The position numbers were made by a program, and so were the translations under genes. Shown in pieces: positions 1 to 5,717 of a stretch of 5,717 nucleotides of DNA; the stretch's first letter is position 1; each line of letters starts with the position of its first letter. The DNA comes from a virus (taxonomy: Duplodnaviria; Heunggongvirae; Uroviricota; Caudoviricetes), in IMG/VR virus record IMGVR_UViG_2693429679_000007. One strand, written 5' to 3'. The notes beneath the pieces were generated by a model. That model was not told the DNA's origin, made no database searches, and was given only the letters and a program-made list of their open reading frames with translations.

Positions 1-1781
1 ACGGAAAAAGACATCACCATTAAGGGCAAAACCACCTCGCAGTATCTGGTCTCGGTGGTGGTGGATAACCTGCCTCCGCGCCCGTTCAGTATCCGGATGC
101 GCAGGATGACACCGGACAGCACCACAGACCAGCTGCAGAACAAAACGCTCTGGTCGTCATACACCGAAATCATCGATGTGAAACAGTGCTACCCGAACAC
201 TGCACTGGTCGGCGTACAGGTGGACTCGGAGCAGTTCGGCAGCCAGCAGGTGAGTCGTAATTATCATCTTCGCGGGCGCATTCTGCAGGTGCCGTCGAAC
301 TATAACCCGCAGACGCGACAATACAGCGGTATCTGGGACGGAACGTTAAAACCAGCATACAGCAACAACATGGCCTGGTGTCTGTGGGATATGCTGACCC
401 ACCCGCGCTACGGCATGGGGAAACGTCTTGGTGCGGCGGATGTGGACAAATGGGCGCTGTATGTCATCGGCCAGTACTGCGACCAGTCAGTGCCGGACGG
501 CTTTGGCGGCACGGAGCCGCGCATCACCTGTAATGCGTACCTGACCACACAGCGCAAGGCGTGGGATGTGCTCAGTGATTTCTGCTCGGCGATGCGCTGT
601 ATGCCGGTATGGAACGGGCAGACGCTGACGTTCGTGCAGGACCGACAGTCGGATAAGGTGTGGGCCTATAACCGCAGTAATGTGGTGATGCCGGATGATG
701 GCGCGCCGTTCCGCTACAGTTTCAGCGCCCTGAAAGACCGCCATAATGCCGTTGAGGTGAACTGGATTGACCCGGATAACGGCTGGGAGACGGCGACAGA
801 GCTTGTGGAGGATACGCAGGCCATTGTCCGTTACGGTCGTAACGTCACGAAGATGGATGCCTTTGGCTGTACCAGCCGGGGGCAGGCACACCGCGCCGGG
901 CTGTGGCTGATTAAAACAGAACTGCTGGAAACGCAGACCGTGGACTTCAGCGTGGGCGCAGAAGGGCTTCGCCATGTGCCGGGCGATGTCATTGAAATCT
1001 GTGATGATGACTATGCGGGTATCAGCATCGGCGGGCGCGTGCTGGCGGTAAACAGCCAGACCCGGACGCTGACGCTCGACCGTGAAATCACGCTGCCATC
1101 CTCCGGTACCATGCTGATAAGCCTGGTTGACGGAAGTGGCAATCCGGTCAGCGTGGAGGTTCAGTCCGTCACCGACGGCGTGAAGGTGAAAGTGAGCCGT
1201 GTTCCTGACGGCGTTGCTGAATACAGCGTGTGGGGGCTGAAGCTGCCGACGTTGCGCCAGCGCCTGTTCCGCTGTGTGAGTATCCGTGAGAACGATGACG
1301 GCACGTATGCCATCACTGCCGTGCAGCATGTACCGGAAAAAGAAGCCATCGTGGATAACGGGGCGCACTTTGACGGCGACCAGAGCGGCACGGTGAATGG
1401 TGTCACGCCGCCAGCGGTGCAGCACCTGACTGCCGAAGTCACCGCAGACAGCGGGGAATATCAGGTGCTGGCGCGCTGGGACACGCCGAAGGTGGTGAAG
1501 GGGGTGAGCTTTATGCTTCGCCTGACCGTGGCAGCGGATGACGGCAGTGAGCGGCTGGTCAGCACGGCCCGGACGACGGAAACCACATACCGCTTCACGC
1601 AACTGGCGCTGGGACGGTACACGCTGACAGTCCGGGCGGTAAATGCCTGGGGACAGCAGGGCGATCCGGCGTCGGTATCGTTCAGGATTGCCGCACCGGT
1701 AGCACCGTCGCGGATTGAGCTGACGCCGGGCTATTTTCAGATAACTGCCACGCCGCATCTTGCGGTTTATGATCCGACGGT
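1..1781 (+). CDS. J: Lambdoid phage tail tip / host-specificity protein J (central tail fibre), internal fragment, allele 1; 5' end lies upstream of the window, 3' end cut at ambiguous base 1782
   Basis: Frame +1 is open from base 1 ([59 protein letters not shown]...); the track ORF 55..1806 is this frame starting at the first GTG. From memory, the translation matches phage lambda gpJ almost residue for residue. J homology ends at 1781; the last 8 codons of the track ORF (to the TGA at 1804-1806) are out-of-frame read-through into the next segment. Confidence 0.9.
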
Positions 1782-1782
1782 N

Positions 1783-2694
1783 CCTATAACCGCAGTAATG
1801 TGGTGATGCCGGATGATGGCGCGCCGTTCCGCTACAGTTTCAGCGCCCTGAAAGACCGCCATAATGCCGTTGAGGTGAACTGGATTGACCCGGATAACGG
1901 CTGGGAGACGGCGACAGAGCTTGTGGAGGATACGCAGGCCATTGTCCGTTACGGTCGTAACGTCACGAAGATGGATGCCTTTGGCTGTACCAGCCGGGGG
2001 CAGGCACACCGCGCCGGGCTGTGGCTGATTAAAACGGAACTGCTGGAGACGCAGACCGTGGATTTCAGCGTGGGTGCTGAAGGGCTTCGTCATGTACCGG
2101 GCGATGTCATTGAAATCTGCGATGATGACTATGCCGGTATCCGCACCGGCGGGCGCGTGCTGGCGGTGAACAGCCAGACCCGGACGCTGACGCTCGACCG
2201 TGAAATCACGCTGCCATCCTCCGGCACCACGCTGATAAGCCTGGTTGACGGGCAGGGGAATCCGGTCAGCGTGGAGGTCCAGTCCGTCACCGACGGCGTG
2301 AAGGTAAAAGTGAGCCGTGTTCCTGACGGTGTTGCTGAATACAGCGTGTGGGGGCTGAAGCTGCCGACGCTGCACCAGCGATTGTTCCGCTGCGTGAGTA
2401 TCCGTGAGAACGACGACGGCACGTATGCCATCACCGCCGTGCAGCATGTGCCGGAAAAAGAAGCCATCGTGGATAACGGGGCGCACTTTGACGGCGACCA
2501 GAGCGGCACGGTGAATGGTGTCACGCCGCCAGCGGTGCAGCACCTGACTGCCGAAGTCACCGCAGACAGCGGGGAATATCAGGTGCTGGCGCGCTGGGAC
2601 ACGCCGAAGGTGGTGAAGGGCGTGAGCTTCCTGCTCCGTCTGACCGTAACAGCGGATGACGGCAGTGAGCGGCTGGTCAGCACGGCCCGGACGA
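1783..2694 (+). CDS. J: Protein J internal fragment, allele 2 (homologous to window positions 665-1576), frame +3, bounded by ambiguous bases on both sides
   Basis: Track ORF 1800..2720 ([46 protein letters not shown]...) is the same J region as 667-1576 but diverged: by hand count about 37 nt differences in 912 bp, giving 7 amino-acid changes (IRTGGRV for ISIGGRV, SGTTLISLVDGQGNP for [21 protein letters not shown] for [18 protein letters not shown] for [12 protein letters not shown]). The offset to copy 1 is a constant 1118 bp with no indels. The ORF's apparent end at 2720 is produced by the N run and a frame change. Confidence 0.85.
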
Positions 2695-2700
2695 NNNNNN
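2695..2700. other. Run of six ambiguous bases (nnnnnn) at the junction between the allele 2 and allele 1 fragments; single n bases mark the other two junctions (1782, 4213)
   Basis: Read directly from the sequence. All three discontinuities in J collinearity coincide exactly with N characters. Confidence 0.95.
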
Positions 2701-3450: not shown

Positions 3451-4212
3451 ACAGTTTGAGTTCTGGTTCTCGGAAACGCGGATTACCGATATCAGGCAGG
3501 TTGAAACCACAGCCCGCTACCTTGGCGCGGGGCTGTACTGGATAGCCGCCAGTATCAATATCAAACCGGGCCATGATTATTACTTTTATATCCGCAGTGT
3601 GAACACCGTTGGCAAATCGGCATTCGTGGAGGCCGTCGGTCGGGCGAGCGATGATGCGGAAGGTTACCTGGATTTTTTCAAAGGCAAGATAACCGAATCC
3701 CATCTCGGTAAAGAGCTGCTGGAAAAAGTTGATCTGACGGAGGATAACGCCAGCAGACTGGATGAGTTTTCGAAAGAGTGGAAGGACGCTAACGATAAAT
3801 GGAATGCGATGTGGGGCGTCAAAATTGAGCAGACCAAAGACGGCAAACATTATGTCGCGGGTATTGGCCTCAGCATGGAGGACACGGAGGAAGGCAAGCT
3901 GAGCCAGTTTCTGGTTGCCGCCAATCGTATCGCGTTTATTGACCCGGCAAACGGGAATGAAACGCCGATGTTTGTGGCGCAGGGCAACCAGATATTCATG
4001 AACGACGTGTTCCTGAAGCGCCTGACAGCCCCCGCCATTACCAGCGGTGGCAGTCCTCCGGTATTTTCCCTGACATCAGACGGAAAGCTGACCGCTAAAA
4101 ATGCGGATATCAGTGGTAGTGTGAATGCGAACTCAGGAACGCTCAACAATGTCACGATTAACCAGAACTGTACGATTAAGGGCATGCTGGAGGCGACCCA
4201 GGTCAGAGGGGA
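2701..4212 (+). CDS. J: Protein J fragment, allele 1 (re-starts at the position equivalent to 1032 and extends about 760 bp beyond the point where the first fragment was cut), frame +2
   Basis: Track ORF 2708..4303. Bases 2701-3450 were identical to 1032-1781 at every position I compared (offset 1669). It then continues ...[94 protein letters not shown]...[21 protein letters not shown]...[15 protein letters not shown], which matches my recollection of lambda gpJ. J homology stops at 4212; the ORF tail to 4303 is an out-of-frame reading of the next fragment. Confidence 0.88.
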
Positions 4213-4213
4213 N

Positions 4214-4483
4214 ATGCCATCACCGCCGTGCAGCATGTGCCGGAAAAAGAAGCCATCGTGGATAACGGGGCGCACTTTGACGGCGACCAGAGCGGCACGG
4301 TGAATGGTGTCACGCCGCCAGCGGTGCAGCACCTGACTGCCGAAGTCACCGCAGACAGCGGGGAATATCAGGTGCTGGCGCGCTGGGACACGCCGAAGGT
4401 GGTGAAGGGCGTGAGCTTCCTGCTCCGTCTGACCGTAACAGCGGATGACGGCAGTGAGCGGCTGGTCAGCACGGCCCGGACGA
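4214..4483 (+). repeat. Exact 270-bp direct duplicate of 2425-2694 (allele 2 of J)
   Basis: Compared block by block with no mismatch seen; the shared reverse-strand ORF text ([39 protein letters not shown] in 1767..2543 and 3850..4941) reflects the same overlap. Confidence 0.8.
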
Positions 4484-5717
4484 CGGAAACCACTTACCGC
4501 TTCACACAACTGGCGCTGGGGAACTACAGGCTGACAGTCCGGGCAGTAAATGCGTGGGGGCAGCAGGGCGATCCGGCGTCGGTATCGTTCCGGATTGCCG
4601 CACCGGCAGCGCTGTCGCGGATTGAGCTGACGCCGGGCTATTTTCAGATAACCGCCACGCCGCATCTTGCGGTTTATGATCCGACGGTACAGTTTGAGTT
4701 CTGGTTCTCGGAAAAGCGGATTGCGGATATCAGGCAGGTTGAAACCACAGCACGCTATCTTGGCACGGCGCTGTACTGGATAGCCGCCAGTATCAATATC
4801 AAACCGGGCCATGATTATTACTTTTATATCCGCAGTGTGAACACCGTTGGCAAATCGGCATTCGTGGAGGCTGTTGGTCAGCCGAGTGATGATGCATCCG
4901 GTTATCTGGATTTTTTCAAAGGCGAGATAGGGAAAACCCATCTGGCTCAGGAGCTGTGGACGCAGATTGATAACGGTCAGCTTGCGCCTGACCTGGCTGA
5001 AATCAGGACGTCCATTACGGATGTCAGCAATGAAATCACGCAGACCGTCAATAAGAAACTGGAAGACCAGAGTGCGGCAATTCAGCAGATACAGAAGGTT
5101 CAGGTTGATACAAATAATAACCTGAACAGCATGTGGGCTGTGAAGCTGCAGCAGATGCAGGACGGACGCCTTTATATCGCGGGTATTGGTGCCGGTATTG
5201 AGAACACCCCTGACGGCATGCAGAGTCAGGTGCTGCTGGCGGCGGACAGGATTGCGATGGTTAATCCTGCGAATGGCAACACAAAACCGATGTTTGTTGG
5301 TCAGGGCGATCAGATATTCATGAACGACGTGTTCCTGAAACGCCTGACGGCCCCCACCATTACCAGCGGTGGAAATCCATCGGCATTTTCCCTGACTCCG
5401 GACGGAAAGCTGACCGCTAAAAATGCGGATATCAGTGGCAGTGTGAATGCGAACGCCGGGACGCTCAACAATGTCACGGTAAATGAAAACTGTACGATTA
5501 AGGGCATGCTGGAGGCGACTCAGGTCAGAGGTGACTTCGTTAAAGCTGTATCCAAATCATTTCCGAAACAGGCTGGTACGTGGGGTAACACGGAAACACC
5601 AAACGGGACGGTTACAGTCACCATAAGCGATGATCATAACTTTGACCGCCAGATTATTATTCCGCCCATTATTTTTAACGGTATAGCGTATGACGATCCG
5701 GGGAGCGGAAATAACCC
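4214..5717 (+). CDS. J: Protein J fragment, allele 2 (re-starts at the position equivalent to 2425 of the second fragment), frame +1, 3' end beyond the window; not in the ORF track because it runs off the window
   Basis: I translated frame +1 from 4213 to 5717 by hand and found no stop: (Y)[188 protein letters not shown]...[96 protein letters not shown]...[135 protein letters not shown]. Bases 4214-4483 are identical to 2425-2694. Confidence 0.88.

Follow-up and report, generated by a model that had tools for sequence, protein, structure and literature searches.

The closest described relatives of this locus are lambda gpJ (PDB 8iyk and related) and the gpJ proteins of E. coli lambdoid prophages. 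In finished genomes, J is a single gene of 3.4-3.5 kb per prophage, and in NCTC9082 (NZ_LR134080.1) and WP8-S17-ESBL-05 (NZ_AP022215.1) it lies within the order tape measure-M-L-K-I-J-lom-stf-tfa. The number of J-like places per complete genome has a median of 3 and reaches 14, and each of the phage records listed has one. Regarding the assembly of draft genomes, Page et al. (2016) describe SSPACE and GapFiller as greedy and capable of false joins; such joins produce N gaps, and the link threshold was lowered to 5 read pairs. GapFiller lengthens both edges of a gap and closes it only when the two extensions overlap, and the gaps that stay open lie mostly in repeats.

The window, by which we mean the whole stretch of 5,717 nucleotides analyzed here, is the entire record CXGI01000257.1, scaffold 257 of 391 in a Shigella sonnei Illumina draft. 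In the supplementary data to Page et al. (2016), this assembly appears as S. sonnei, run ERR047216, made with a Velvet/SSPACE/GapFiller pipeline. The isolate is ERS024597. The record is the output of a read-pair scaffolder working from reads shorter than the repeats involved: the ERR047216 reads are 54-bp paired-end, and six identical tracts common to the two J alleles of the window measure 55 to 253 bp. Our findings indicate that the window is not a real gene arrangement but almost certainly an artefact that arose when paralogous J genes of prophages were scaffolded. The genes involved are lambdoid prophage J paralogues of an ordinary kind and bring no new biology. An earlier note, made from the sequence alone, had proposed an assembly chimera in which two prophage J copies were tangled by the assembler. 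The 391-scaffold draft, the 54-bp reads, a pipeline prone to false joins and the collinearity of the alleles with real J genes bear out that proposal, and "scaffolding artefact" is the more exact term because the joins are scaffold joins.

The window consists of four pieces that alternate between the two alleles, each of them free of stops in one frame only (19-35 stops per piece in the remaining two frames), exactly as the earlier note had described:

1-1781, + strand: piece A, allele 1, open only in window frame +1
1783-2694, + strand: piece B, allele 2, open only in frame +3
2701-4212, + strand: piece C, allele 1, open only in frame +2
4214-5717, + strand: piece D, allele 2, open only in frame +1

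Within a J gene of 3.4 kb, piece A represents nt 445-2225, approximately lambda gpJ residues 149-741; it carries the Pfam domains FNIII-A_GpJ, Phage-tail_3 and Ig_J and has neither a start nor a stop codon of its own. Piece B covers J nt 1109-2020 and piece C J nt 1476-2988. Piece D begins at J nt 1751, and its alignment with the 3,480-nt WP8 J gene runs up to nt 3041; its last ~210 nt differ from that gene and extend to where the C-terminal receptor-binding domain begins, and it holds a partial Ig_GpJ_C. An intact full-length J ORF (~1,130-1,160 aa) is absent from the window, which offers no start, no stop and four fragments in three frames; this absence is a property of the record and not necessarily of the genome. 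No RNA family was detected in the window by Rfam at gathering thresholds.

The three junctions between these pieces share the same features:

1782: junction 1, a single N; from J nt 2225 back to nt 1109, with an allele switch and a change of frame from +1 to +3
2695-2700: junction 2, six Ns; from J nt 2020 back to nt 1476, with an allele switch and a change of frame from +3 to +2
4213: junction 3, a single N; from J nt ~2988 back to nt 1751, with an allele switch and a change of frame from +2 to +1

Every discontinuity therefore falls on N, and these eight positions are the only Ns in the whole window, in agreement with the claim that the junctions lie on ambiguous bases. The joins jump backward by 544-1,237 nt in J coordinates, alter the frame in all three cases and show zero microhomology. 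The jump described for the first of them, from 1781 back to the equivalent of 665, is confirmed by the alignment of A 665-1576 with piece B at 96.1% identity. SSPACE and GapFiller probably write unclosed or negative gaps as a single N; a published statement of this convention was looked for in the literature and not found. The same locus is also represented redundantly. Positions 1032-1781 of piece A equal 2701-3450 of piece C (750/750 bases), and 2425-2694 of piece B equal 4214-4483 of piece D (270/270 bases), so that the overlap reported for same-allele pieces is indeed exact, and chance does not account for exact matches of 750 and 270 bases. A diversity-generating retroelement and a programmed duplication were both weighed and set aside, since the repeats are gene segments of 0.27-0.9 kb joined at Ns, with no short template/variable repeat pair.

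When the same-allele pieces are merged, they give stop-free segments of 847 aa (allele 1) and 714 aa (allele 2). The merged alleles each line up with annotated gpJ in one collinear piece, at 99.0% in NCTC9082 and 98.0% in MB56, and allele 1 residues 1-846 align with 8iyk_J 149-994 in one stretch (1,866 bits, E-value 0). Their Pfam domains follow the order FNIII-A_GpJ, Phage-tail_3, Ig_J, Ig_J_second, Phage_Tail_Tip and Ig_GpJ_C, with all hits above the Pfam gathering scores and the first and last domains partial from truncation of the fragments. Genomes of isolated phages show the same collinearity for individual pieces: piece C in phage mEp460_ev081 (97.8% identity, 100% coverage), and piece D in phages ev099 and phi458 (97.1% identity, 100% coverage). 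Furthermore, the finished genome of WP8-S17-ESBL-05 contains J genes of both allele types, lying in two tail modules and separated by 0.93 Mb.

The two alleles had been called near-identical in the earlier note. This holds for A against B, A against D (95.0%) and B against C (95.4%); the term is a little too strong for the 3' half, where C and D agree at 93.1%, then pass through a barely alignable module and resume at 89.4%. Outside this module, which has been swapped between them, the alleles are 93-96% identical. The two versions are:

3724-3964, + strand: swapped middle module, allele-1 version (241 bp), inside the Phage_Tail_Tip region
4961-5286, + strand: swapped middle module, allele-2 version (326 bp)

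Both versions occur elsewhere, the first at 100% in EC2, NCTC9082 and other genomes and the second at >=99% in 968 records.

The arrangement itself, in contrast, was not recovered from finished genomes. The genomes compared are E. coli, serving as proxies for S. sonnei, with best identities of 98-99% and not 100%. Among 5,426 complete E. coli genomes, none has the adjacency of junction 1, and none covers >=80% of the junction 3 query. For junction 2, the adjacency is missing from the best eight matches, whose two pieces over 545 bp correspond to normal J geometry. The exact pattern of junction 1 likewise had no match among IMG/VR viral contigs. A natural tandem or segmental duplication, which the earlier note had already disfavored, is contradicted by the Ns at the joins, the zero microhomology, the lack of junctions 1 and 3 in every one of the 5,426 genomes and of junction 2 in the top matches, and a different layout in a sister assembly.

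The same evidence bears on the idea that the order is real, with an IS-rich, pseudogene-rich S. sonnei chromosome carrying a frame-broken array of J fragments generated by illegitimate or IS-associated recombination, and with the Ns as simply uncalled bases. Databases do hold J proteins that are too long and jump back internally, among them one on a 1.09-Mb scaffold without N, and another S. sonnei draft has an IS1 transposase near a J region. Nevertheless, the N-free junction of KZ269417.1 (assembly GCA_002244545.1), where 490 nt of J are duplicated in frame, either genuinely or through a falsely closed gap, is also missing from the top-ranked matches, and a real array would have to place an N at every join, lack microhomology throughout and keep same-allele pieces free of any difference over 750 and 270 bp even though the alleles differ by 4-7%. 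Together with the junction searches in finished genomes, the single J place of each phage record listed and a sister isolate of the same project in which the same alleles are built into a different layout, this makes a genuine array extremely improbable.

That sister record, CXFR01000279.1, comes from the same sequencing project as the window isolate. It contains both window alleles (one piece 100% identical to allele 1, another 99.7% identical to allele 2), joined by single Ns, with breakpoints and an order that differ from those of the window. A tiling of pieces by J start, which the values 445, 1109, 1476 and 1751 in the window might suggest, was rejected as a rule, the order in the sister scaffold being 1306, 985, 1180 and 1226. 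The two S. sonnei drafts CXFR01000279.1 and FUBH01000078.1 also bear on a further alternative, in which N spacers were put between separate contigs on purpose by the submitter and no read-pair scaffolding took place. The spacers are indeed very short (1, 6 and 1 Ns) between otherwise unrelated ends. However, the pipeline documented for the accession is SSPACE scaffolding followed by GapFiller, and single-N joins located specifically inside J in two further drafts point to repeat-driven linking and not to arbitrary concatenation, which leaves deliberate joining with a negligible probability.

The scaffolding artefact could have arisen as follows. The S. sonnei isolate most probably carries two or more paralogous J (tip attachment/host specificity) genes of lambdoid prophages, within which the short-read assembly probably broke. 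Read pairs in the shared tracts may then have tied together contigs from different J copies, which the scaffolder would have united with N gaps. The gap filler would finally have extended each edge along its own copy, and with no overlap between the extensions, 1-6 residual Ns and redundant sequence would remain. We infer the exact order of these pipeline events, which is consistent with the geometry and provenance of the record, the collinearity of its alleles, the missing junctions (best matches for junction 2) and a layout that the sister does not reproduce.

The positions of the piece ends add detail to this scheme. The tracts identical between the alleles measure 253, 170, 102, 61, 56 and 55 bp, and three of the six internal ends fall in tracts longer than a read: the end of A (61-bp), the end of B (55-bp) and the start of B (253-bp). 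The start of C, the start of D and the end of C fall in short tracts of 21, 20 and 2 bp, respectively, so two alleles do not suffice to explain every breakpoint, and we assume further J copies or gap-filler stalls. A de Bruijn breakpoint signature, in which contigs would end at a fixed distance past the last variant, was not seen.

These ends raise the question of whether the pieces are true haplotypes. A variant of the artefact reading supposes at least three J copies or a mixed culture, with pieces that are phase-switched mosaics and "alleles" that are not real haplotypes. The pieces themselves may indeed contain allele phase switches. In the sister draft designated L005, piece 3 follows allele 2 at all discriminating sites between 918 and 1332 and allele 1 at all of those between 1503 and 2349, and the switch spans exactly the 170-bp identical tract. 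Similarly, in another S. sonnei draft, L006, the J pieces share no more than 91-97% identity with either allele, implying that the species has three or more J types, and this variant would also accommodate the three unexplained piece ends and the complete genomes with up to 14 J-like places. Conversely, each phase across the 170-bp tract is seen in two window pieces (A and C for one, B and D for the other), piece 4 of L005 gives independent backing to the phase of allele 2 (99.7% over 1,888 bp), and the two merged alleles, each free of stops, run collinear with real genes. We therefore consider such mosaicism a possibility on the less likely side, which would leave the joins themselves artefactual.

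The matter is ultimately one of data quality. Three ORFs called on the record run across the joins into junk tails, for instance:

1783-1806, + strand: spurious tail of called ORF 106-1806, in frame +1 past junction 1 into out-of-frame allele 2 (XPITAVMW*)
4213-4303, + strand: spurious tail of called ORF 2708-4303, in frame +2 past junction 3 (30 protein letters)

The clustered protein collection lacks all three called products, and the ORF from position 1 is not on record according to an exact look-up. Tangles that stay in frame do enter databases: NCBI nr contains a 913-aa and a 1,195-aa "host specificity protein [Shigella sonnei]", the former deposited from a chimeric ORF of CXFR01000279.1 that remains in frame. 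Among the 30 members listed for two J protein clusters, many are partial J proteins ended by contig edges, and those named are from E. coli. Chimeric J sequences can consequently mislead Shigella pseudogene counts, prophage typing, J-based inference of host range and protein clustering, and J should be treated as a hotspot of contig breaks and false joins in short-read enterobacterial assemblies.

Compared with known systems, the window shares its parts and differs in its layout. The Pfam domain order of lambda gpJ is identical to that of the merged alleles; unlike lambda gpJ, the window has internal fragments only, duplicated and misordered, with no start or stop and with only the first ~47 residues of the receptor-binding domain. 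The gpJ proteins of E. coli lambdoid prophages in NCTC9082 and WP8-S17-ESBL-05 are 95-99.5% identical to the window, and every piece is collinear with them; the prophage genes stand whole in a tail module, free of jump-back junctions (top matches for junction 2), whereas the window holds J sequence only. The two J paralogues of WP8-S17-ESBL-05 diverge as the window alleles do, at 94.8%, then through a swapped module, then at 91.7%. CXFR01000279.1 and FUBH01000078.1 resemble the window in their single-N joins inside J, jump-backs and overlapping pieces, and differ from it in breakpoints, piece order and phase. Finally, the false joins of SSPACE and GapFiller described by Page et al. (2016), with N gaps at joins, and the repeat gaps that GapFiller leaves open after lengthening both edges resemble what is seen in the window.

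The feature that fills the window is a scaffolding artefact over paralogous prophage J genes, which encode gpJ, the tip attachment protein of lambdoid prophages. Its Ns, eight in all (1782, 2695-2700 and 4213; junctions 1 to 3), separate four pieces, A and C from allele 1 and B and D from allele 2, whose J coordinates were taken on a real 3.4-kb J gene:

Piece A, 1-1781, open in window frame +1, J nt 445-2225
Piece B, 1783-2694, open in window frame +3, J nt 1109-2020
Piece C, 2701-4212, open in window frame +2, J nt 1476-2988
Piece D, 4214-5717, open in window frame +1, J nt 1751 onward

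These positions make every join a backward jump of 0.5-1.2 kb. The earlier note had described four J fragments in the order allele 1/2/1/2 with N at each join, and all of its details proved correct. The frames it gave (+1, +3, +2, +1) are the single stop-free forward frame of each piece, the other two forward frames carrying 19-35 stops. The exact overlaps it saw between same-allele pieces are confirmed for A 1032-1781 and C 2701-3450 (750/750) and for B 2425-2694 and D 4214-4483 (270/270), as is the return at junction 1 to the position equivalent to 665, since the whole of B matches A 665-1576 at 96.1% identity. The two alleles share 95.0% for A versus D and 95.4% for B versus C; the term “near-identical” is slightly generous for the 3' half, where C and D share 93.1% as far as 3723/4960 and 89.4% beyond a swapped, poorly alignable module. 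D can be aligned to nt 3041 of the 3,480-nt J gene of E. coli WP8-S17-ESBL-05 (NZ_AP022215.1), beyond which its final ~210 nt are divergent.

The window is identical to CXGI01000257.1 (5,717 bp, GCA_001257235.1), the one contig returned by an exact look-up of the ORF at 2708-4303. A supplement entry (ERP000182, ERS024597, ERR047216, CXGI01000001-CXGI01000391, Shigella sonnei; Page et al. 2016, PMC5320598) makes it scaffold 257 of 391 from a Velvet/VelvetOptimiser, SSPACE and GapFiller pipeline. According to the same source, SSPACE and GapFiller are greedy and capable of false joins, N gaps arise where read pairs join contigs, and the number of pairs required for a link falls in steps from 90 to 5 before 120 iterations of GapFiller. 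GapFiller grows both gap edges base by base and closes a gap only when the two extensions meet in an overlap that agrees with the estimated size; the gaps it leaves open lie mostly in repeats (PMC3446322). Reads of ERP000182 are 54-bp paired-end (PMC3460743), and the identical tracts common to both alleles (253, 170, 102, 61, 56 and 55 bp) all exceed this length.

From these data we infer the following course of pipeline events. Contigs would break inside paralogous J genes; read pairs with one mate in a shared tract would tie contigs of different J copies, which the scaffolder would join; and the gap filler would lengthen each edge along its own copy, meeting no overlap, so that 1-6 Ns would remain, along with redundant sequence. 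Of the six internal piece ends, three fit this mechanism by the identical tract in which they lie (A end, 61 bp; B end, 55 bp; B start, 253 bp). The remaining three sit in short identical tracts, so extra J copies or extension stalls have to be assumed for them. Unclosed or negative gaps are written as a single N by SSPACE/GapFiller, a convention that we did not find stated in the SSPACE/GapFiller literature searched; single Ns account for 7 of 8 gaps across the three S. sonnei J tangles examined.

Searches of 5,426 complete E. coli genomes with 200 bases either side of each join showed no such adjacency for junctions 1 and 3, nor for junction 2 among the eight best-ranked rows. The junction 1 query was “covered” in two records only, each time by two pieces spread over ~1.08-1.10 kb; these are normal J genes with the halves at their usual spacing and no adjacency. 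For junction 2, these eight rows all consist of two pieces over exactly 545 bp, corresponding to merged-allele coordinates 1032-1576, and thus show normal J geometry. No complete E. coli genome covers 80% of the junction 3 query, and microhomology is absent from all three joins.

The same two alleles are tangled, with other breakpoints and in another order, in CXFR01000279.1 (5,097 bp), from a sister S. sonnei draft whose WGS accession prefix is adjacent, as expected of an artefact and not of a real locus. Single Ns at 569, 1496 and 3209 separate pieces at J nt 1306-1876, 985-1873, 1180-2888 and 1226 onward, and alignment to the reference J stops at nt 2498, the start of the swapped module. 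Piece 1 shows 100% identity to allele 1; for piece 4 the figure against allele 2 is 99.7% over 1,888 bp. Piece 3 (1497-3208) follows allele 2 at all discriminating sites to 1332 and allele 1 from 1503, the change falling across the 170-bp run that both alleles share (allele-1 coordinates 1333-1502). Either the assembler changed phase at this point or there is a third J copy, mosaic by nature; under the first reading, the window's own pieces may also be phase-switched. Similarly, FUBH01000078.1 (22 kb, S. sonnei) has a doubled J region in which positions 4116 and 5700 are single Ns. Identities of 91-97% between its alleles and those of the window indicate at least three J types in S. sonnei. 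The pipeline record, the collinear alleles and the sister draft together support the earlier note's proposal of an assembly artefact of two prophage J genes.

In FUBH01000078.1, the tangled J is followed downstream by lom and tail-fibre genes and, after ~4 kb, by an IS1 transposase (11641-12338) that adjoins chromosomal genes (glutaminase, aldehyde dehydrogenase), a placement consistent with S. sonnei prophage remnants bounded by IS elements.

Unexpectedly, over-long “J” proteins of 1,190-1,442 aa came top in the allele 1 protein search (P0001-P0011, P0030); they contain sharp jump-backs, and two are from S. sonnei. Many such proteins exist in public databases, some on contigs up to 1.09 Mb. 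KZ269417.1 (GCA_002244545.1) has an in-frame join without N (locus L007, 7626) from J nt 1-1626 to 1137-3399; the top-ranking complete-genome rows do not show this adjacency, and the join may stem from a gap closed falsely or from a duplication private to that genome. In the P0097 cluster (2,019 J proteins), 15/15 members listed are tagged “partial” (468-964 aa, i.e. cut at a contig end), which marks J as a common contig-break site in draft enterobacterial assemblies.

Genes called on CXGI01000257.1 reflect the tangle:

106-1806, translation finishes as junk past a join
1806-2720, likewise runs beyond junction 2
2708-4303, translation finishes as junk past a join

The warning that J intactness or pseudogene calls from this sequence would be unreliable is upheld, and CXGI01000257.1 is unfit for any such call.

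Merging through the exact overlaps (A to C, B to D) gives stop-free translations for allele 1 (2,543 nt, 847 aa) and allele 2 (2,146 nt, 714 aa). Both carry the Pfam J series (FNIII-A_GpJ, Phage-tail_3, Ig_J, Ig_J_second, Phage_Tail_Tip), with only the start of Ig_GpJ_C, in allele 2 alone. Allele 1 covers residues 149-994 of lambda gpJ (PDB 8iyk) as a single stretch. In the 5,426 complete genomes, both merged alleles align to annotated gpJ unbroken and over their whole length (100% coverage), with top identities of 99.0% (NCTC9082) and 98.0% (MB56). Full collinearity also holds for C (97.8%, mEp460_ev081) and D (97.1%, ev099/phi458) in genomes of isolated lambdoid phages, with one J place per phage record among the matches listed.

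The nearest finished-genome match to allele 1, gpJ of NCTC9082 (NZ_LR134080.1, locus L002 11557-14971, 3,415 nt), carries a frameshifted-pseudogene annotation. A 1-nt indel separates it from the window, whose allele 1 stays open at that point; a homopolymer error in long reads or a true frameshift could explain the indel.

The antisense strand of J genes (comparison loci L003 3527-6925 and L004 3525-7004) holds a stretch of 639-768 codons without stops, sense TTA, CTA and TCA being missing from about codon 201 to 969. In the window, the antisense stop-free stretches are:

487-1758, minus strand
2579-3850, minus strand
3850-4941, minus strand

In codon-order shuffles of two genes, a run of this length came up in 0/5000 and 13/5000 cases, and the open stretch probably reflects regional codon-usage heterogeneity between a conserved core and a swapped C-terminus.

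Complete E. coli genomes contain a median of three J-like places and a maximum of 14. The barely alignable middle modules of the window (241 bp, 3724-3964, versus 326 bp, 4961-5286), inside the Phage_Tail_Tip region, occur in 2,633 and 3,609 of the 5,426 genomes, both together in single chromosomes, and represent typical J mosaicism. The true arrangement probably resembles that of WP8-S17-ESBL-05, where J genes of allele-1 type (2.28 Mb) and allele-2 type (3.22 Mb) each lie in their own tape measure-M-L-K-I-J-lom-stf-tfa module. This pair diverges as the window alleles do (identity of 94.8% over nt 1-2498 and, past a swapped module, 91.7%), and the underlying biology, mosaic J paralogues of lambdoid prophages, is already well known.
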